Below, one piece after another: positions 3,230 through 60,224 of a DNA stretch of 64,000 nt. A program made the translations under genes and the position numbers. The DNA lies in the NCBI GenBank assembly GCA_038918905.1, contig JBCKZS010000011.1, forward strand, positions 1,062-65,061, written 5' to 3'. Positions within the stretch are counted from its first letter, which is position 1. Every line of letters starts with the position of its first letter. The stretch is from Vicinamibacterales bacterium (GTDB taxonomy: Bacteria > Acidobacteriota > Vicinamibacteria > Vicinamibacterales > SCN-69-37). Under the pieces are notes generated by a model that was given only the letters and a program-made list of their open reading frames with translations, did not search any database and had not been told where the DNA came from.

Positions 3230-4105
3230 ATGAGCGACTTCGGAGCACAGCTCAAACAAGCGCGTGAACATCGGGGCATTTCCCTGCGGCAGATCGCCAC
3301 GTCCACGAAGATCTCGATCGTGGCGCTGGAGGCGCTGGAGCGGGGCGACCTCACGCGGTTGCCCGGCGGCATCTTCAGCCGCGCGTTCGTGCGCGCGTAT
3401 GCGCTCGAGGTCGGGTTGGACCCGGACGCGATCGTCAACCAGTTCCTCGCCGAACTCGGCGTGCTGGCCGAGCGTCGCGACGACCAGGCGCCGCGACCGG
3501 AGGTGACCGCCGACGACCGCGCCTTTCTCGAGCGGCAACGCAAGGCCTGGCTGGCGTTGCGCGTGGGGGTGGTCGTGCTGGTGCTGCTGGTGATCCTGGC
3601 GATCGTCAGTTGGCAGGTGGCGTGGCGCGGCGACGCCTCAGGGCCCGGGACCGCGCCCTCCGCGGCCTCCTCACCGTCCCCCTCGACCTCCACACCGGCG
3701 TCCGACGCCGAGGCGGCCACGCCAGGACCGTCGGTCGTGCCGCCCGCGTCGGCGCCAACCACGGCGCGCCTGACGGTCGAAATCGTCGCGTCCGACCGTT
3801 GTTGGGTGCAGGTGACCACGGATGGGTCGGTCGTGCCGGCGCGCGAGTTCGCCGCTGGCGATCGTCAGCGATTCGAGGCGAACAGGGAAGTCATCCTGCA
3901 GGTCGGCAGCGCCGGCGCGATCCGGTGGACCATCAATGGCCGCGCCGCGCGCTCGCTGGGGCAACTGGGCGAAGTGAAAACCGTCCGGGTGTCCGCCGGG
4001 AACCTGTCGGAGTTCCTCCAGGAGCCGGACGCATCGGCGACAGGCTCACCCTCAGTCCTTCTTCTTCAATCGAACAGTCGAGTACCTGCGCGCCGGCTGA
4101 GGTGA
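3230..4105 (+). CDS. RodZ-like cytoskeleton protein (XRE-type HTH, TM segment, DUF4115-like C-terminus)
   Basis: N-terminal HTH (GISLRQIATSTKISIVALEALERGD), one TM helix, a Pro/Ser/Ala linker and a C-terminal CWVQVTTDG...INGR beta domain. Confidence 0.7.
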   Translation: MSDFGAQLKQAREHRGISLRQIATSTKISIVALEALERGDLTRLPGGIFSRAFVRAYALEVGLDPDAIVNQFLAELGVLAERRDDQAPRPEVTADDRAFLERQRKAWLALRVGVVVLVLLVILAIVSWQVAWRGDASGPGTAPSAASSPSPSTSTPASDAEAATPGPSVVPPASAPTTARLTVEIVASDRCWVQVTTDGSVVPAREFAAGDRQRFEANREVILQVGSAGAIRWTINGRAARSLGQLGEVKTVRVSAGNLSEFLQEPDASATGSPSVLLLQSNSRVPARRLR

Positions 4106-11970: not shown

Positions 11971-12002
11971 AGTCCAGAAGTCCAGGAGTCCGGAAGTCCG
12001 AA
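11971..12002. repeat. 4 x 8-bp tandem repeat AGTCCRGR filling the secretin-permease spacer
   Basis: The units agtccaga, agtccagg, agtccgga and agtccgaa are contiguous and end 3 nt from the permease ATG. Confidence 0.9.
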
Positions 12003-16015: not shown

Positions 16016-16039
16016 GGACCCCTGGACCCCTGGACCTTC
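16016..16039. repeat. 3 x 8-bp tandem repeat GGACCYYY just after the pfk stop
   Basis: The units ggacccct, ggacccct and ggaccttc are contiguous. Confidence 0.85.
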
Positions 16040-20006: not shown

Positions 20007-20147
20007 GGTGCTCCTCATTGCTCCTGAATGCTCGTCAATAAAACACGGGGCGTACACTGAAACGCCGGCCTCATGCGGGGGCCGGCGCTTCCTGAAACGG
20101 GGGCGCGTGCGCGACACGCGCGAGGGGGTTCTGAAAGCGGACCGACG

Positions 20148-21870: not shown

Positions 21871-21914
21871 AGGGGAAACCGAGGGGAAACCGAGGGGAAA
21901 CCGAGGGGAAACCG
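21871..21914. repeat. 4 perfect copies of the 11-bp unit AGGGGAAACCG
   Basis: Four contiguous identical units in the rplM/pilM divergent region, starting 8 bp beyond the rplM -35 hexamer. Confidence 0.95.
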
Positions 21915-28348: not shown

Positions 28349-29214
28349 CCCGCCCCATCCCGACTGGTCCGCCAGACTGGCGACGCTCCGCCGCCGCTGG
28401 CAGGACCAACGCTGCGACGCCTGCGTCATCAATTCGCTGACCAACATCTTTTACCTGTGCGGCGTGCGCGCGAGCGCCGGCCTTCTCGTCCAGAGCCACG
28501 ACGCCAGTGACCTGTTGCTCGACGGCCGGTACACGACCGCCGTGCTCGCCGATCGGGCCACCGGTCGCGCCGGCCCCGTGACCGTGCAACGGGTCGACGG
28601 TTCGTAGGACACGGCACTGGCAGCCCTCCTTGTTCGCATCGGCGCTCGCCGTGTGGTGTTCGAGCCCGAGCACACGACCGTGTCGACGCTGGCGACGTGG
28701 CAGGGGATGTATCCCGCCGACTGGCATGGGGCCGGGCATCTGGTGGAACCGATGCGCCTCGTGAAGGATGCCTGGGAATTGGCGGTCTTTCGGCGAGCCG
28801 GGGCAGCACTCGGCGATGTGGCCGCCGGTCTGGGGGCGTGGGTCGCCGCCGGCCGTACCGAACGCGACATTGCCGCCGACATCAACCGCGCCATCCTCCG
28901 GGCCGGTTTCTCCCGCCCGGCCTTCGACACCATCGTCGCCGCCGGTCCCCACAGCGCCCATCCGCACGCGCGGCCGACCGACCGGCGCCTCGAATCGGGG
29001 ACCTGGTGGTGCTGGACTTCGGCGGGGTGTTAGACGGATACTGCGTCGACCTCACCCGGATGGCCGCGGTTGGCCAGGTGGAGAAGGACTTGGCGAGGCT
29101 TTTGTCCATGGAACCGGCCACGGACTCGGGTTGGAGGTGCACGAAGCCCCCCGGCTCTCCCGCCTCAGCGGGCCTGATGAAGTGCTGGGGACCGGCATAG
29201 TCCGCACCTTCTGA
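28341..29214 (+). pseudogene. pepP: decayed Xaa-Pro aminopeptidase (M24B, pepP-like)
   Basis: The homology runs through an in-frame TAG at 28605-28607, where a Tyr codon is expected. There is a -1 shift in a G run near 28995 (ESG|DLVVLDFGG). About 50 aa are missing between AAVGQV and GEAFVHGTGHGLGLEVHE. The C-terminus is truncated at GIVRTF. Confidence 0.8.
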
Positions 29215-29234
29215 CCATCTGACCATCTGACCTT
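29211..29234. repeat. 3 x 8-bp tandem repeat CTGACCWT abutting the accB ATG
   Basis: The units ctgaccat, ctgaccat and ctgacctt are followed directly by ATG at 29235. Confidence 0.9.
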
Positions 29235-31106: not shown

Positions 31107-31772
31107 GTGCGTCCCGCGCTGGTGCTTCCGGCCCTCTACGCCATTCTCGATGTCGACGTGGTCACCGCCCGCGGGTGGGCACCAACGAACGTGTGCCGCG
31201 CCTGGCTGTCCGCTGGCGTGCGCCTCATTCAGCTCCGAGCCAAGTCGTTGTCCTCAGGAGCGTTCCTTGCGTTGGCCGACGAGGTGAGCGGTCTCTGCCG
31301 TGCCGCCGGGGCGCGCCTCATCGTCAACGACCGCGCGGACGTGGCCGTGATGTGCGGCGCCGACGGCGTCCATGTGGGGCAGGATGATCTGTCACCGGAG
31401 GACGCCCGGCGCGTCGTGGGACCGGACGCGATCGTCGGCCTGTCGACCCACACCGATGCGCAACTGGAGGCTGCCGCGGAGACGCCCGTGTCGTATCTGG
31501 CGATTGGGCCCGTCTACGGCACGCGCACGAAGGAGACTGGCGACGTCGCGGTCGGACTGGAACAGATCGCGCGGGCGAAGGTGGTGGCCCGCCGTGCAGG
31601 CGTTCCGCTCGTCGCCATTGGTGGCATCACACTTGAGCGCGCGCCGGCAGTTCTCGCGGCCGGTGCGGACTCACTGGCGGTGATTACGAACCTGCTGGAG
31701 GCTGGCGACCTCCGCGAGGTGGAAGAGCGGGCTCGCGCGTGGATGCGGGTCTCACCACCGTCTCCTGATTGA
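31107..31772 (+). CDS. thiE: thiamine-phosphate synthase
   Basis: LYAILD, IQLRAK, IVNDRADVA, GQDD, YLAIGPVYGT and AIGGI motifs. Confidence 0.85.
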   Translation: MRPALVLPALYAILDVDVVTARGWAPTNVCRAWLSAGVRLIQLRAKSLSSGAFLALADEVSGLCRAAGARLIVNDRADVAVMCGADGVHVGQDDLSPEDARRVVGPDAIVGLSTHTDAQLEAAAETPVSYLAIGPVYGTRTKETGDVAVGLEQIARAKVVARRAGVPLVAIGGITLERAPAVLAAGADSLAVITNLLEAGDLREVEERARAWMRVSPPSPD

Positions 31773-31798
31773 GCCCGATTGAAGGCGATTGAGCCCGA
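31767..31798. repeat. 10-bp periodic repeat GATTGAGCCC / GATTGAAGGC / GATTGAGCCC spanning the thiE stop
   Basis: Read directly from the sequence. A related copy, GATTGAGCCCG, lies at 33090-33100. Confidence 0.8.
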
Positions 31799-36569: not shown

Positions 36570-38003
36570 TCAGTTCCCGATGCGCGCCCCGGTCGTCGGA
36601 TGGGTCACCGCGTACTCTTTGCCGGTGCCGGTGAAGTAATCGGCCGTGATCTTTCTCACCACGCCCAGCAGCAGGAACAGCCCGACGAGGTTCGGGAAGG
36701 CCATGAACCCGTTGAGCAGCGTGCCGATGGCCCACACAAGCGGGACCGACACCACCGAGCCCACCATGATGAGCAGCGTGAACACGGCGCGGTAGACCTT
36801 CGTGTACGCCGAGCCGAAGATGTACTCGAAGCACTTCTCGCCGTAGTAGCTCCAGCCGATGAGCGTCGTGAACCCGAACAGGAAGGAGCAGATCGCCACG
36901 ATGACCGTTGCGTAGGGGATCGACGTGCTCATCGCGGCCGCCGTGAGATCGCCGCTGGCCTTCTGATAGGCCGGGTCCATCCACATGCCCGACGACAGGA
37001 TGACGAACGCGGTCATGGAGCAGACAATGATCGTGTCAAGGAAGACTTCGAAGACCCCCACCACGCCCTGCTCGGCGGGGTGTTTGACGTTGGCGATGCC
37101 GTGGGCGATGGGCGCGCTGCCCAGGCCGGCTTCGTTCGAGAGCACGCCGCGGCTGACGCCCGCCGCGATGGACTGGGCCACGGTGGACCCGACAAACCCG
37201 CCGACGGCGGCGGTCGGCGAGAAGGCTTCACTGAAGATCAGGCCGAACACGTGCGGCAACTGGCCGGCGTTGATGATGATGAAGGCCACCGAGGCCACCA
37301 CGTAGAGCACGATCATCGAGGGCACGAGCTTTTCGGCGACGTGGGCGATGCGCTTGATGCCGCCGAGCAGCACGAGGCCCACCGCGACCGTGATGAGCAC
37401 GCCAGGCACCCACTGTTCGATCGTGGCGCCCGTGGTGACGCGCACGGCTTCAACGAACGTGCGGGCGACCGTATTGGACTGCGCCATGTTGCCCGTGCCG
37501 AACATCGCGGCCGCGATGCCGAAGAAGGCGAACAGCCACGCCAGCGTCTTGCCCACCGAGCTGCCCCCCAGGCCCCGCGTGATGTAGTACATCGGACCGC
37601 TGGCCAGTTCACCGTTCTCGCGCGTGACGCGGAAGTGGACGCCCAGCACCGCTTCCGAGTATTTGGTGGCCATGCCCACCGTGGCGCAGACCCACATCCA
37701 GAAGATGGCGCCCGGTCCGCCGATCAGGATCGCGGTGGCGACACCGCCGATGTTGCCGTTGCCGACGGTCGCGGCCAGGGCCGTCGACAACGCCTGGAAC
37801 GGCGTGATCGTCTTGGACCCCTTGTCTTCCTTCTTGAACGCGCCCTTCATCACCATCCGCAGCGCGGCGGGGAAGTGACGGATTTGCACGAAGCCCGTCG
37901 CGATCGTGAGCAAGCCGCCCACGATCACCAGGACAAGTGGCATCGCAAACGGCTGCCACACCAGGCTGTCTATCGAAATAATCCACTCAGTCAGTTGCGT
38001 CAT
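36570..38003 (-). CDS. alanine/glycine:cation symporter (AGCS family)
   Basis: TPFQALSTALAATVGNGNIGGVATAI and GPGAIFWMW motifs. Confidence 0.9.
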   Translation of the reverse strand: MTQLTEWIISIDSLVWQPFAMPLVLVIVGGLLTIATGFVQIRHFPAALRMVMKGAFKKEDKGSKTITPFQALSTALAATVGNGNIGGVATAILIGGPGAIFWMWVCATVGMATKYSEAVLGVHFRVTRENGELASGPMYYITRGLGGSSVGKTLAWLFAFFGIAAAMFGTGNMAQSNTVARTFVEAVRVTTGATIEQWVPGVLITVAVGLVLLGGIKRIAHVAEKLVPSMIVLYVVASVAFIIINAGQLPHVFGLIFSEAFSPTAAVGGFVGSTVAQSIAAGVSRGVLSNEAGLGSAPIAHGIANVKHPAEQGVVGVFEVFLDTIIVCSMTAFVILSSGMWMDPAYQKASGDLTAAAMSTSIPYATVIVAICSFLFGFTTLIGWSYYGEKCFEYIFGSAYTKVYRAVFTLLIMVGSVVSVPLVWAIGTLLNGFMAFPNLVGLFLLLGVVRKITADYFTGTGKEYAVTHPTTGARIGN

Positions 38004-38032: not shown

Positions 38033-39397
38033 TCAGCCCAACAGGTCGCGGATGGTGAAGATGATGATCATGCCGATGGCCACGGGGCACACCCATCGGA
38101 TGAGGAAGCTCCAGAAGGCGGCGCCCGGCATCCGGCCGCCGAGGTTGAGTTCTTCAAGGGCTTTGTCGGCGCGCCAGACGTGGCCCACGAAGATGGCCAG
38201 CAGGAAACCGCCGACCGGGAGCGCGAAGTCGTTCCACATGATGGCCATCAGGTCCAGGAAACCCATGCCGAGGCCCGGAAGATTGGAGAAGAACCCCGAG
38301 GCGCCCTGCGAGAGCGCCGAGGGGATCGCCAGCAGGAACGTGATCCCGGTCAGCGTCAGCACGGCCGGCTTCCGCTGCCACCCGTGCGAATCAATGAGGT
38401 GCGCGGTCGGCACCTCGAGCAGGGAAATCGTCGACGTGATGGCTGCCATGCTCAACATGATGAAGAAGGCGGCGCCCACCAGTTGCCCGCCGGGCATCGT
38501 CGCGAAGAGCTGAGGCAGGATGACGAAGATCAGGCCGGGGCCGCTGGTGTTCGGATCGAAACCGGCGAGGCTGAATCCCGCGGGGAAGATGATGAAGCCG
38601 GCCATCAACGCCACCGTCGTGTCCAACAGGACCACCCACATCGCCGCGCGGGCCAGGTTCTCCTTCTTCGACAGGTAACTGCCGTACGTGATCATCGCAC
38701 CCATGCCCAGGCTCAGCGAGAAAAACGCCTGGCCGAGGGCGGCGTTGATGACCGGCATGTGGAAGACCTTGTCGAAGTCCGGCTTCAGGTAGTAGGCCAG
38801 ACCGGCGTCGGCGCCGGGCAACGTCAGCGCGCGCACCATCAGCAGGATCAGCAGGCCGAACAACATCGGCATGAGCGCCTTGGTCATGCGCTCGATGCCC
38901 TGGCGCACGCCGCCCAGCAGCGTGGCGGCCGTAATCGCCAGGACGACAAACGTGAGGCCGATGCTCACGCCAGGCGTGCTGACGAACTGCCCGAAGAACT
39001 CGCCGGTGGCGGCGGAGTTGCCCGTGACCGCACCGGTGGCGGCGAAGTACACGTAGGCGATCGTCCACCCGGCGATGACCGAGTAGAAGGACAGGATGCC
39101 CACGCCGGCGAGCACCCCGAGCGCGCCGGTGAGCCACCAGGCGCTTCCGGGCTTGATCACGCGGAAGGCGCCGACCGGGTCCTTGCGGGAGCGACGCCCG
39201 ACGGCGAACTCGGCAATCATGATGGGCGCGCAGATGAGCGCGACGCAGACCAGGTACACCAGCACAAACGCCGCGCCGCCGCCCTGGCCCACCTTCGTGG
39301 GAAAGCCCCAGATGTTGCCCAGGCCGATGGCCGATCCTGCCGCCGCCAGAATGAATCCGAACCGGGACCCGAAGGCTCCACGATCACTCACTGCCAT
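38033..39397 (-). CDS. sodium-dependent transporter, NSS/SNF family
   Basis: FGFILAAAGSAIGLGNIWGFP signature. The start is taken at MAVSDRG, with an AAGGGAG SD. Confidence 0.9.
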   Translation of the reverse strand: MAVSDRGAFGSRFGFILAAAGSAIGLGNIWGFPTKVGQGGGAAFVLVYLVCVALICAPIMIAEFAVGRRSRKDPVGAFRVIKPGSAWWLTGALGVLAGVGILSFYSVIAGWTIAYVYFAATGAVTGNSAATGEFFGQFVSTPGVSIGLTFVVLAITAATLLGGVRQGIERMTKALMPMLFGLLILLMVRALTLPGADAGLAYYLKPDFDKVFHMPVINAALGQAFFSLSLGMGAMITYGSYLSKKENLARAAMWVVLLDTTVALMAGFIIFPAGFSLAGFDPNTSGPGLIFVILPQLFATMPGGQLVGAAFFIMLSMAAITSTISLLEVPTAHLIDSHGWQRKPAVLTLTGITFLLAIPSALSQGASGFFSNLPGLGMGFLDLMAIMWNDFALPVGGFLLAIFVGHVWRADKALEELNLGGRMPGAAFWSFLIRWVCPVAIGMIIIFTIRDLLG

Positions 39398-39443: not shown

Positions 39444-39472
39444 ATGATACGGGGAGAGCGCCCAAGGCTCAA
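39444..39472 (-). promoter_or_regulatory. sigma70-like promoter for the NSS/AGCS transporter pair (TTGAGC-17 nt-TATCAT)
   Basis: The minus strand reads TTGAGCcttgggcgctctccccgTATCAT, about 45 nt upstream of the ATG at 39397. Confidence 0.35.
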
Positions 39473-39486
39473 GGGTCAACTTTTTG

Positions 39487-39598
39487 GAGCACTTGTGCTC
39501 GGGTGCTCCGGTGCTCTGGTGCGCCCGTGCGCCAGAGCACCCGAGCACTGGAGCACGTGAGCACCCGAGCACCCGAGCACTGGAGCACTGGTGCACCT
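39487..39598. repeat. 14 x 8-bp strictly periodic array of G-W-G-C-N-C words with an orientation switch
   Basis: Words start every 8 bp from 39487 to 39591: gagcac, gtgctc x3, gtgcgc x2, gagcac x7, gtgcac. The left and right halves are partly complementary. Confidence 0.95.
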
Positions 39599-39602
39599 AT
39601 AA
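39597..39602 (+). promoter_or_regulatory. consensus TATAAT at the end of the octamer array, upstream of folD
   Basis: cacctataattgc lies 29 nt before the GTG at 39632. No good -35 is present, and the -35 position falls inside the array. Confidence 0.3.
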
Positions 39603-39631
39603 TTGCCCCGGCTGAACAAGGGGGCGACGAC

Positions 39632-40612
39632 GTGGGCGAGGTAATGAACGGCGCGAGGGTGGCGAAGGCGATCCGCGCGGAGGTGGCCCCCCAGGTGGCG
39701 GCCTTCCGCGCCGCGCGCGGGCGGGCCCCGGCGCTGCACATCCTGCTGGTCGGCGAGGACCCCGCCTCACAGATTTATGTGCGGAACAAGGAACGGGCGG
39801 GCACCGAGGCCGGTCTGACCGTGCAGGTGCACCGGCTCCCCGCCGCTGCCGCGCTCGACCGGGTCCTGGACCAGGTGCGGGCGCTCAACGACGATTCCCT
39901 GTGTGACGGCATCCTGGTGCAGGCGCCGCTGCCCGCCGCGATTGGCAAACACGGCACCGAGCAGGTGTTTGACGCCATCGATCCGCGCAAGGACGTGGAC
40001 GGGTTTCATCCCCACAACGTCGGGCTGCTCGTGCAGGGCCGCGCCGCGCTCAAGCCGTGTACGCCGTCCGGCGTGATCGAACTGCTGAATCGAACCGGGC
40101 ACACCATCGCGGGGAAACATGCCGTGGTGATCGGGCGCAGCGAGATCGTCGGCAAGCCGATGGCCCTGCTGCTGTTGCAAGGCGATGCCACGGTCACCAT
40201 CTGCCACTCGAAGACGCCGGATCTGGCGGCCACCTGCGCGCGGGCCGACATCCTGGTGGCGGCCATCGGCCGCGCGGGGTTTGTGACCCCCGACTTCGTC
40301 AAGCCCGGCGCGGTCGTGATTGACGTCGGCATCAACCGGGTGGACGTGCGCGATCGTATGGTGGATCTGTTCGGCGCGGCCCACCCGCGCGTGGCCGAGT
40401 TCGATAAAAAGGGCTCCGCGGTGGTCGGCGACGTGCACCCTGCAGTCGCGGCCGTCGCCGGAGCCATGACCCCCGTCCCCGGCGGCGTCGGCCCGCTCAC
40501 GATCGCCATGCTGCTCAAAAATACGCTGGCCGCGGCGGAATCACGAGAGAGAAGATTGCAGCCTCTCCCAGATGTTCCTCGTCCGCTCCCCGGTCTGCTC
40601 CAGCGTCCCTGA
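39632..40612 (+). CDS. folD: bifunctional methylenetetrahydrofolate dehydrogenase/cyclohydrolase
   Basis: LLVGEDPASQIYVRNK, KDVDGFHP, GRSEIVGKP and PVPGGVGP motifs. The GTG at 39632 has an AAGGGGG SD. An alternative ATG lies at 39644. The upstream 540 aa of the 865-aa ORF are antisense shadow. Confidence 0.9.
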   Translation: MGEVMNGARVAKAIRAEVAPQVAAFRAARGRAPALHILLVGEDPASQIYVRNKERAGTEAGLTVQVHRLPAAAALDRVLDQVRALNDDSLCDGILVQAPLPAAIGKHGTEQVFDAIDPRKDVDGFHPHNVGLLVQGRAALKPCTPSGVIELLNRTGHTIAGKHAVVIGRSEIVGKPMALLLLQGDATVTICHSKTPDLAATCARADILVAAIGRAGFVTPDFVKPGAVVIDVGINRVDVRDRMVDLFGAAHPRVAEFDKKGSAVVGDVHPAVAAVAGAMTPVPGGVGPLTIAMLLKNTLAAAESRERRLQPLPDVPRPLPGLLQRP

Positions 40613-47296: not shown

Positions 47297-47674
47297 TCAG
47301 GAGGCGCCTGACCTCCCGCCCTGGGCGTGTGCGTGCTTCCGGCTGACGAACTTCACGTCCGCGTCGTCGTCGGCAATCCCTGACAACACGACCGGGCCAC
47401 GGTCCGGAAATTCGGCCACAAGAGACAGATTGCCACCCATCGCCTCGACGGTCTTCCGAAGTGTCGACAACAAGAGGTCGCTGCGTTTCTCGAGGCGCGA
47501 CACGCCGTCCTGGGTGATGCCAAGCGCCTTGGCCATGCGAACCTGCGTCAGTTTCCGAGCGTGCCGGAGTTCCTGCAAGGTCATTTCCTCCGCAGTGAGC
47601 TGCGCGGCGCGGGCAGCGATCTTCTTGCGGCGCGCGGGGCTCAGTCCCTTCCTGATTTGTTCGAGGTTCGTCAT
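47297..47674 (-). CDS. XRE-family HTH antitoxin (HigA-like)
   Basis: LQELRHARKLTQVRMAKALGITQDGVSRLEKRSD HTH. The start overlaps the toxin stop (ATGA). Confidence 0.75.
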   Translation of the reverse strand: MTNLEQIRKGLSPARRKKIAARAAQLTAEEMTLQELRHARKLTQVRMAKALGITQDGVSRLEKRSDLLLSTLRKTVEAMGGNLSLVAEFPDRGPVVLSGIADDDADVKFVSRKHAHAQGGRSGAS

Positions 47675-48054
47675 CGTTGCGACTTCCTTTCCTGTTCTTT
47701 CCGCTTCTTGATGCCGGCCAGATGAGCGTCAAGCCGCGCGTCAGCGCGCCCTATCAGTTGCACATAGAATCGCTTCTCGCTCCCGCCGGACTTGTCACCG
47801 CCGCACAGGATGATTGCCTGACGCTTCGGGTCAAAGGCAGACGCGAAACGCCACACGCCGTCCGCGGCATCGAACCGCAGTTCCTTCATGTTCGCGTGGC
47901 GAGAGCCATTGAGCGTGTCGACACGTGGCCGCCCAAGCAATGGCCCAACCTGTTCAAGCAACGTGACGCAGGCCAACAGCTCGTCTTGAACGTCCCTGGG
48001 GAACTCGTGGTACTCCACAACGAAGTCGTCATGGAGTTCAACGTTCCAGGCCAC
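47671..48054 (-). CDS. RelE/ParE-superfamily toxin (HigB/Gp49-like)
   Basis: LLEQVGPLLGRPRVDTLNGSRHANMKELRF...WRFASAFDPKRQAIILCGGDK pattern. The start is taken at the GTG at 48054. The upstream part of the 272-aa ORF looks non-coding. Confidence 0.75.
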   Translation of the reverse strand: MAWNVELHDDFVVEYHEFPRDVQDELLACVTLLEQVGPLLGRPRVDTLNGSRHANMKELRFDAADGVWRFASAFDPKRQAIILCGGDKSGGSEKRFYVQLIGRADARLDAHLAGIKKRKEQERKSQR

Positions 48055-48060
48055 CTGCAA

Positions 48061-48089
48061 ATGATGCGCTTTGAAGCATATGTTGTCAA
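48061..48089 (-). promoter_or_regulatory. TTGACA-17 nt-CATCAT promoter ending 6 nt before the toxin GTG
   Basis: The minus strand reads TTGACAacatatgcttcaaagcgCATCATttgcagGTG. Confidence 0.4.
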
Positions 48090-48484
48090 ATACATAAGGC
48101 AGCGAGCGCCATTGCGAAAGGGCGACAGGGCGAAAGCGGCCGAAATGTCGCGGGTTGGCGTCACAATGGCCAGACATGATCCCGGGAGGGAGGCCGCGAT
48201 GATTCAACGACTGCTGACAGCCGTGGTGATTACAGCCGCCATACTGACCGCTGGAGCAGAACGGCCGGCGGCTTGCTCGTGCGTCGGGCCGCTCGTGGCG
48301 TGCGAGTCGGCTTGGACCACCGATTGAGCGTGATCGCCGGTCGTTCGCATCGTCTACTCGTGGAGTGGTGGCCGGTCGTTGAAGGGCGCCAGGTCTACCG
48401 CTCCGCCGAGTGAAGCCACAGCCGGCCTTCCCCCGCTCCGCCTGGTGGTGCAGGACCGCGCCCAGCGCTGAGCACCCGGCATTT

Positions 48485-48519
48485 GGCACGCGGCACGAGG
48501 CACTGGGAACTGGCCCAGG
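48485..48519. repeat. about 5 x 7-bp tandem repeat GGCACKN
   Basis: The contiguous units are ggcacgc, ggcacga, ggcactg, ggaactg and gcccagg, about 75 bp upstream of the ATG at 48592. Confidence 0.8.
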
Positions 48520-55889: not shown

Positions 55890-55934
55890 CTACGGATGAC
55901 AAGGAACCACGGACGACAAGGAACAAGAGGACGA

Positions 55935-60186: not shown

Positions 60187-60224
60187 CAAATCGTAATTTG
60201 TAAATTTGAAATTGTAACTTTCCC
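60187..60224. other. 38-nt strongly AT-rich spacer with loose 7-8-bp periodicity between ndk and dcd
   Basis: caaatcgtaatttgtaaatttgaaattgtaactttccc stands out in an otherwise GC-rich window. Confidence 0.8.

Follow-up and report, generated by a model that had tools for sequence, protein, structure and literature searches.

An octamer array between two divergent promoters

We analysed a 64-kb window, by which we mean the whole stretch of 64,000 nucleotides, from a soil bacterium that the names of homologues assign to the Acidobacteriota, order Vicinamibacterales. In this window folD and the gene for a Na+-dependent transporter diverge from an intergenic region of 246 bp. This region holds an array of octamer units, and the genes and features in and around it are as follows.

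36570–38003, minus strand: gene of the Na+/alanine-glycine symporter (AGCS) family, downstream in the transporter operon (Pfam PF01235, E = 2e-128)
38033–39397, minus strand: gene for an SNF/NSS-family Na+-dependent transporter of 454 aa (Pfam PF00209, E = 1e-55)
39444–39472, minus strand: transporter promoter from a promoter scan, with −35 TTGAGC (39472–39467), a 17-bp spacer and −10 TATCAT (39449–39444)
39475–39486, minus strand: 12-bp A/T-containing linker GTCAACTTTTTG, CAAAAAGTTGAC when read on the minus strand, at about −38 to −49 of the transporter promoter
39475–39595: lineage-specific 121-bp insertion, consisting of GTCAACTTTTTG and the array, between conserved GGCTCAAGG and CCTATAAT (by comparison with the related loci L204, L205 and L208)
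39487–39596, no strand: octamer array of 14 hexamer words, 110 bp (direct reading, pattern count and TRF)
39495–39518, no strand: left arm, GTGCTC three times (units 2–4; three-assembly alignment)
39519–39534, no strand: symmetry centre, GTGCGC twice in the window, GTGCTC/GTGCAC in other alleles
39535–39590, no strand: right arm, GAGCAC seven times with spacers CC, TG or GT, the part most rearranged among strains
39598–39603, plus strand: folD −10 box TATAAT, 1 bp past the last word (direct reading)
39644–40612, plus strand: folD, methylene-THF dehydrogenase/cyclohydrolase, 322 aa (Pfam PF00763 and PF02882)

The promoter scan returned one site for the transporter compared with 0.0 in shuffled sequences, and its −35 box, 14 bp from the array, has the coordinates given for it in an initial annotation of this DNA (39467–39472, minus strand). 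The folD −10 box lies one base further right than the 39597–39602 reported there. No −35 element of folD is recognisable; at 17-bp spacing its position does fall inside the array, as had been proposed, but the GAGCAC word found there (39575–39580) matches TTGACA at only one of six positions. The linker occupies an UP-element-like position, and a role as UP element is something that we only infer. Since the array is located upstream of both promoters, it should not be transcribed from either one. At its other end, folD overlaps the convergent coaE gene by ~72 bp (3′ ends, 40541–40612 in the L001 gene calls).

Direct reading agreed with the annotated succession of 14 words at exact 8-bp steps (starts at 39487 + 8k, k = 0 to 13), which runs GAGCAC, three GTGCTC, two GTGCGC, seven GAGCAC and one GTGCAC, all separated by variable 2-nt spacers; the last word stops at 39596 and not, as annotated, at 39598. 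TRF reported periods of 8, 16 and 24 for this array. The two-unit pattern GWGCNCNNGWGCNC matched 26 times in the window versus 2.9 ± 1.8 times in 100 shuffles (maximum 10), with 23 matches inside the array and three outside, where chance predicts 2.9 per 64 kb. The lone GAGCAC word showed no enrichment outside the array (65 seen versus 51 expected in the window, with 11 in the array), and the window contains only one GWGCWC array. This motif is its own reverse complement, and the two halves of the array are mutually reverse-complementary as annotated, a GTGCTC block being followed by a GAGCAC block.

Positions G1, G3, C4 and C6 are constant in all 14 units of the window (0 of 56 deviations versus 15 of 28 at spacer positions; P = 2.5e-9, Fisher test), a comparison that overstates independence because the variant units are themselves duplicated. 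The constancy could result from selection on the word; it could equally stem from few independent events, since few spacer types were amplified by duplication. The small open reading frames spanning the array are translated repeat. As annotated, the array is not a CRISPR: its words are 6 bp and its spacers 2 bp long, compared with CRISPR repeats of ~23–50 bp and unique spacers of similar length. An Rfam scan of the window gave no hit at the array, and only two tRNAs reached the gathering score. There is no turn of the GC skew within the window, which leaves a reading as replication origin or terminus without support.

Variation among conspecific assemblies

Two NCBI assemblies, L001 and L002, provided conspecific alleles; they were retrieved by exact-protein look-ups with the SNF transporter, FolD and the AGCS symporter. 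Both encode a transporter identical to that of the window, and identity around the array is 99.4–99.6%. An ungapped alignment of the window with L001 covers 14,305 bp and shows 64 differences, 16 of which are located within the 110-bp array. This amounts to a difference rate of 14.5% in the array versus 0.34% elsewhere, a ~40-fold excess (binomial P = 5e-20). Thirteen of the 16 array differences cluster at 39543–39582, mostly at spacer positions. The L002 array has 13 units compared with 14 in the window and in L001 (8-bp deletion, placed at 39516–39523), and carries 19 more differences versus ~40 substitutions in the remaining 12.7 kb.

Units 1–4 are common to the three alleles; the centre and the right arm differ in unit order, spacer type and degenerate units. 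Over the left arm (39495–39518) the window and L001 have the same sequence, and L002 aligns here as one 8-bp unit shorter. Changes in the core word (AGCCAC, GGGCAC and GTACCC) are found in L001 and L002, and irregularity is greatest at or beside the centre in all three alleles, i.e. at the two GTGCGC words of the window and at AGCCAC/GGGCAC in units 8–9 of L001 and L002. The flanks of all three assemblies are identical over the 22 bp that directly adjoin the array on the left and over ~90 bp on the right. Such differences in unit order and spacer type are the signature that repeated gain and loss of whole units, together with register shifts, would leave behind. That two alleles have exactly 14 units despite their different internal order could reflect selection on length.

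These data support the suggestion of the initial annotation that the array is hypermutable, as conspecifics are polymorphic in both unit number and unit order. The same annotation had named an assembly artefact as a possible objection and inter-strain copy number as a check: three independent assemblies contain the array in variant forms, and gross misassembly is unlikely because a typical read is longer than the array, whose longest exact internal repeat is ~22 bp. If the assemblies are metagenome-derived, their sequences could represent population consensuses. Outside the array, the transporter gene (38033–39397) has 10 nucleotide differences from L001 and encodes an identical protein, a pattern that indicates strong purifying selection on a gene adjoining a hypervariable array. 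In addition, L002 lacks a 712-bp stretch (47463–48174) that both the window and L001 contain; this stretch spans a Gp49/HigB-like toxin gene, part of its HTH antitoxin gene and an octamer repeat at 48114.

Contingency repeats such as those of Haemophilus influenzae hmw are found between promoter and start codon or between −35 and −10 boxes, at surface-protein genes of host-adapted pathogens. The presence of 13 versus 14 units among near-identical strains, in a promoter region as with the 7-bp repeats of hmw, raised the question of a classical contingency (phase-variation) locus, in which unit gain or loss would switch folD or transporter expression; the initial annotation had also listed this option. 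However, the repeat lies neither between −35 and −10 nor in a 5′ UTR or ORF. The transporter −35 and both −10 boxes are outside it, and any unit change leaves an identical repeat word at the folD −35 position. Moreover, the genes serve housekeeping metabolism and transport rather than surface or host interaction, and similar repeats occur at many unrelated junctions in the lineage. The array thus shares with the promoter-located simple sequence repeats (SSRs) of contingency loci (summarized in PMC12721329) a multi-copy 7–8-bp unit near a promoter and a copy number that differs by strain, but it is situated upstream of both promoters, beside housekeeping genes of a soil bacterium. We consider a contingency switch most improbable here.

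The opposed arms also led us to weigh a structural role. Between divergent promoters the twin-domain model predicts negative supercoiling, under which the arms could extrude as a cruciform and couple or insulate the two promoters. In favour of this, the array is positioned exactly in such a region, and its DNA fold energies of −44.6 kcal/mol in the window and −48.3 kcal/mol in L001 correspond to z = −7.6 and −10 against dinucleotide shuffles (about −7.4 to −10 for single-stranded folds of the three alleles). The arms of L001 and L002 form a 22-bp stem, complementary spacers included, which beats 395 of 400 shuffles of unit order. In the window allele, by contrast, 93 of 400 unit-order shuffles fold equally well; since this allele is unexceptional, most of the fold signal must come from the self-complementary GWGCWC word. 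The differences between alleles are non-compensatory: the left arm is unchanged and the rearranged right arm weakens the stem, which in L002 is shorter (−36.9 kcal/mol), and we saw no sign of symmetry being maintained. A cruciform function is accordingly regarded as quite unlikely, and the hairpin was rejected as the key feature, given that the z-scores from dinucleotide shuffles shrink under the unit-order shuffle.

The folD–transporter junction in related species

Orthologous loci were obtained by a metagenome scan and by protein look-ups. Divergent folD and SNF genes occur widely as a pair (L122, L125, L127–L130, L163, L204, L205 and L208), and the array is absent from L122, L204, L205, L208, L209, L210 and L211 as well as from the distant folD–SNF loci L125, L127–L130 and L163. 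In the closest species, whose transporters are 82–86% identical to that of the window, both ATTATAGG (the folD-side −10) and CTTGAGC (the transporter −35) are kept. More specifically, ATTATAGG is conserved in L122, L204, L206, L208, L210 and L211, and the transporter −35 recurs in L204, L206, L208, L210 and L211. The transporter −10 is found in these same five loci and in L209, as TATGAT in L206 and L210 and as TATCAT otherwise; TATCAT is the only recognisable transporter box in L122. The distance between the promoter hexamers varies as follows.

L204, L205 and L208: 4 bp, with nothing beyond the junction in between
L211: ~30 bp, with a small palindrome in between
L206: 35 bp, including GGGCACAC CTGCACGA
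L210: 65 bp, GC-rich
Window: 125 bp, with the 121-bp block 39475–39595 (GTCAACTTTTTG and the array)

GGCTCAAGG and CCTATAAT abut directly in L204, L205 and L208, and the array is of recent origin. Unrelated inserts of ~26, 31 and 61 bp occupy the same junction in other species. A MAFFT alignment placed the two GNGCAC units of L206 against the transporter-proximal units of the window, which suggests that the array may have grown in place from a two-unit seed like that of L206; being roughly as distant from one of the other species as from the next, the lineage of the window gives no order for the events.

Among iterated operators, MetJ binds 8-bp boxes in arrays of 2–5 and omega 7-bp boxes in arrays of 7–10, in promoter regions in both cases, and MetJ governs methionine and one-carbon-linked genes. 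Their arrays are conserved among relatives, recur across the regulon and have a known cognate protein. By analogy, a dimeric DNA-binding protein (e.g. of the ribbon-helix-helix, MetJ/omega type) might polymerize on the 8-bp boxes and co-regulate folD and the transporter, and the initial annotation had proposed a platform that co-controls folD and amino-acid uptake. The self-complementarity of GWGCWC, its strict 8-bp register, in which a conserved core alternates with a variable spacer as in MetJ metbox tandems, and the location of the array, abutting the folD −10 and close to the transporter −35, would all suit an operator. In the same vein, paired octamer sites of Geobacter metallireducens were proposed, without a test, to bind IHF/HU-like global regulators (PMC2700814).

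The likeness ends with contiguous, self-complementary short boxes, palindromic or in either orientation, in a promoter region; conservation in relatives, recurrence across a regulon, a cognate protein and a comparable box number were not seen here. The array is missing in all sister species that keep the gene pair and both promoters, the two-box pattern is no more frequent outside the array than expected by chance in the 64 kb, and conspecific strains show reshuffled, lost and degenerate units. The L001 gene content revealed no candidate gene for a cognate DNA-binding protein adjacent to the array. The genes beside GAGCAC arrays in other Acidobacteriota are unrelated (they encode a glycosyltransferase, a YeiH-like protein, an FGE-sulfatase and aldehyde dehydrogenases), other repeats in this genome are built on unrelated words, and 14 boxes far exceed the known operators of the MetJ/omega type. 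Collectively, this makes an operator unlikely, and the proposed co-control of the two genes found no backing.

The discrete 121-bp insertion at a precise junction also raised the possibility of a remnant or miniature of a mobile or inserted element with inverted octamer-array ends, either MITE-like or resembling a cargo-less intervening-sequence (IVS) cassette. The occurrence of the same words at non-orthologous sites in the phylum would fit such an origin, and in Geobacter IS elements are located at fixed distances from paired octamer sites (PMC2700814). A related arrangement is seen in L021 (Vicinamibacterales; 3356–4010), where four GTGCTCGG units and seven GAGCACCY units are inverted around a 570-bp cassette of lower GC that encodes a PF05635 23S-rRNA-intervening-sequence protein; this locus might represent an inserted cassette bounded by repeat arrays. 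However, neither a target-site duplication nor a terminal inverted repeat beyond the repeat itself is visible at the 39475/39595 boundaries, a second copy is absent from the 64 kb, and the window contains no homologue of the IVS protein. The unrelated inserts at the same junction point to local sequence turnover, not transposition, and the possible two-unit precursor in L206 favours expansion in situ. We rate a mobile origin as very unlikely; the features of a MITE/REP-type element were not found in the window, and a link to the IVS cassette was rejected.

Long-unit intergenic repeats and the probable growth of the array

The array is not the only intergenic repeat of this lineage. The window contains about ten further short intergenic tandem repeats with periods of 7–17 bp, 2–4 copies and unrelated words (11971–11999, 16016–16036, 20009–20039, 21871–21914, 29206–29232, 31767–31798, 48114–48136, 48477–48515, 55892–55924 and 60195–60221). 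Several of them directly precede start codons, and one is a perfect 11-mer in four copies within another divergent intergenic region. The related array that had been annotated at 48470–48519 is real but weak, with three exact GGCAC words at 7-bp spacing and degenerate flanking units (TRF: 48485–48503, 2.7 copies, score 31); as its period and word differ from those of the octamer array, it is better seen as one of these ten.

Such repeats are far denser in the window than at distant loci: counting non-triplet repeats of at least three copies, we found 11 loci in ~97 kb of close Vicinamibacterales versus three loci in ~441 kb of distant sequence, all sampled without regard to repeat content. Another junction of the window illustrates their turnover. 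Between LapB and CoaE there is 1 bp in the window, but 6.7 copies of GGTCCAG in L122 (1356–1403), and in L204 (112–202) a two-armed array made of GGTTC words, four GCACCCA and GAACC words. At this junction exactly one 7-bp unit distinguishes L204 from L205, to which it is nearly identical.

Long SSRs with units of 5–11 nt are abundant in some bacteria and have been ascribed to polymerase slippage (Mrazek et al., 2007, as summarized in PMC4679880 and PMC4692102). In the accounts given by these papers and by PMC2700814, those whose unit length is not divisible by three are intergenic, array length varies among close relatives, and inverted pairs can occur. The initial annotation had found no repeat class to which the array belongs, yet it fits this one, including the inverted-pair form of Xanthomonas and Geobacter: its 8-nt units are arranged head to tail, form a run longer than chance allows, are intergenic and vary in number between close relatives, and its two arms are opposed. 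Unlike other long SSRs, it combines a constant 6-nt core with a variable spacer dinucleotide, and it is placed upstream of two divergent promoters. We found no earlier report of long SSRs in Vicinamibacterales in the literature.

The heptamer GGGAATC of Xanthomonas forms arrays of up to 14 units that are 89–93% intergenic and of unknown function (Rehm et al., 2015; PMC4692102). This one word occupies ~185 sites per genome, 7–8% of them between divergent genes, with 70–75 convergent inverted pairs per genome; closely related species differ in array length and sequence, Xcc and Xac have conserved repeat sites, and the G-rich units form G-quadruplexes (PMC4692102). Our array resembles these in being intergenic, variable in length, 14 units long and of the inverted-pair form, but different loci of the DNA examined here use different words, GWGCWC has no G-tracts, and the array is species-specific. 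Paired tandem sites of G. metallireducens (GTTGCTYN in four copies, TCTCCGTS in three and MTYCTGA in five; Aklujkar et al., 2009; PMC2700814) lie on opposite strands in intergenic regions and are species-specific, being absent from the sister species. They have 3–5 units per site, a variable gap between partners and many copies per class per genome (PMC2700814). The octamer GTTGCTYN resembles GTGCTCNN, and species specificity and opposed arms are likewise shared; the difference lies in the 14 contiguous units found here versus 3–5 per gapped site. The paired or two-armed class noted in Xanthomonas and Geobacter has never been explained. The array is an addition to this loosely defined and functionally unexplained kind of repeat, from which it differs in word, host phylum and position.

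Collectively, this pointed to the array as probably a slippage-driven long-unit SSR, i.e. an octanucleotide minisatellite, that is recent and whose main consequence is architectural. It would have arisen recently in the lineage of this species, inside the very short spacer between back-to-back promoters, with whole 8-bp units being gained, lost and reshuffled via replication slippage; the self-complementary GWGCWC and the hairpin between the arms probably aid this process. A dedicated binding protein would not be needed. The main consequence would be that the promoters are pushed apart and that the upstream DNA of each one is replaced by repeat DNA.

In L204 the −10 boxes are 27 bp apart, compared with ~154 bp between −10 centres in the window and L001 and ~146 bp in L002. 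Where the hexamers are 4 bp apart, as in L204, L205 and L208, RNA polymerases at the two promoters would have to overlap in their footprints, and a distance of ~154 bp should allow both promoters to be occupied at once and uncoupled, so that growth of the array may have relieved promoter interference. A spacer or insulator effect through this separation of the promoter boxes is plausible. Gain or loss of one unit changes the spacing by 8 bp and leaves the core elements untouched, for which reason its effect on expression should be graded or nil rather than on/off, and the helical phase of 14.7 versus 13.9 turns between alleles argues against a phase-dependent function; the variation itself may be near-neutral.

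If the array grew in this way, an expanding simple repeat can separate compact, abutting divergent promoters over no more than a species' lifetime. The spacings at this one junction (4, ~30, 35, 65 and 125 bp) provide a natural series for testing promoter interference. The data flag Vicinamibacterales as rich in long-unit intergenic repeats, two-armed ones included. Such arrays can serve as strain-level markers, and they mimic iterated binding sites, which makes them a hazard for promoter and operator prediction.

A pattern scan for three GAGCAC units found at least 119 loci in many phyla, mostly perfect single-word octamer microsatellites. Within the Acidobacteriota, several members have arrays with GAGCAC/GGTGC and GGTTC words at non-orthologous sites. 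Random slippage does not predict this recurrence of words, which keeps alive, at low probability, a sequence-directed reading: Vicinamibacterales, and perhaps Acidobacteriota, might hold a process that seeds and expands two-armed GGTGC(TC)/GGTTC-type arrays at gene junctions, a proposal that we think improbable. Were it true, the agent could be a protein that binds and stabilizes the words, a cargo-less mobile element or hairpin-templated copying, and the folD array would be its largest local product, possibly a real platform for protein binding or supercoil sensing.

Several arrays in other genomes may be recorded here. Two-armed tandem-repeat palindromes were found in other Acidobacteriota, namely in L061 (483–639; GGTGC/GGTTC versus GCACC/GAACC), L095 (1381–1448; TGGATTT versus AATCCAA) and L108 (4842–4956; TCAGCTA versus GATAGCT), i.e. 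the architecture recurs and the word changes. In an uncultured Bacteroidales MAG, CAYVJA01, octamer arrays of AGTGCTCT were seen on at least seven contigs (L012, L034, L047, L075, L076, L097 and L119), so that, as in Xanthomonas, one word makes up a repeat family. Of 115 GAGCAC arrays among the matches listed, 11 have a −10-like hexamer (5 or more of 6 positions matching) within 30 bp downstream and 4 have one upstream; as a general rule the association was rejected, the signal being too weak and many of these arrays residing in AT-rich genomes. Four GAGCAC-type arrays of Acidobacteriota end 0–16 bp from such a hexamer, roughly in 8-bp register: L016 (6191–6274, TATAAT), L035 (2419–2478, TATAAA), L021 (3949–4025, TATGAT) and the window (39535–39603, TATAAT).
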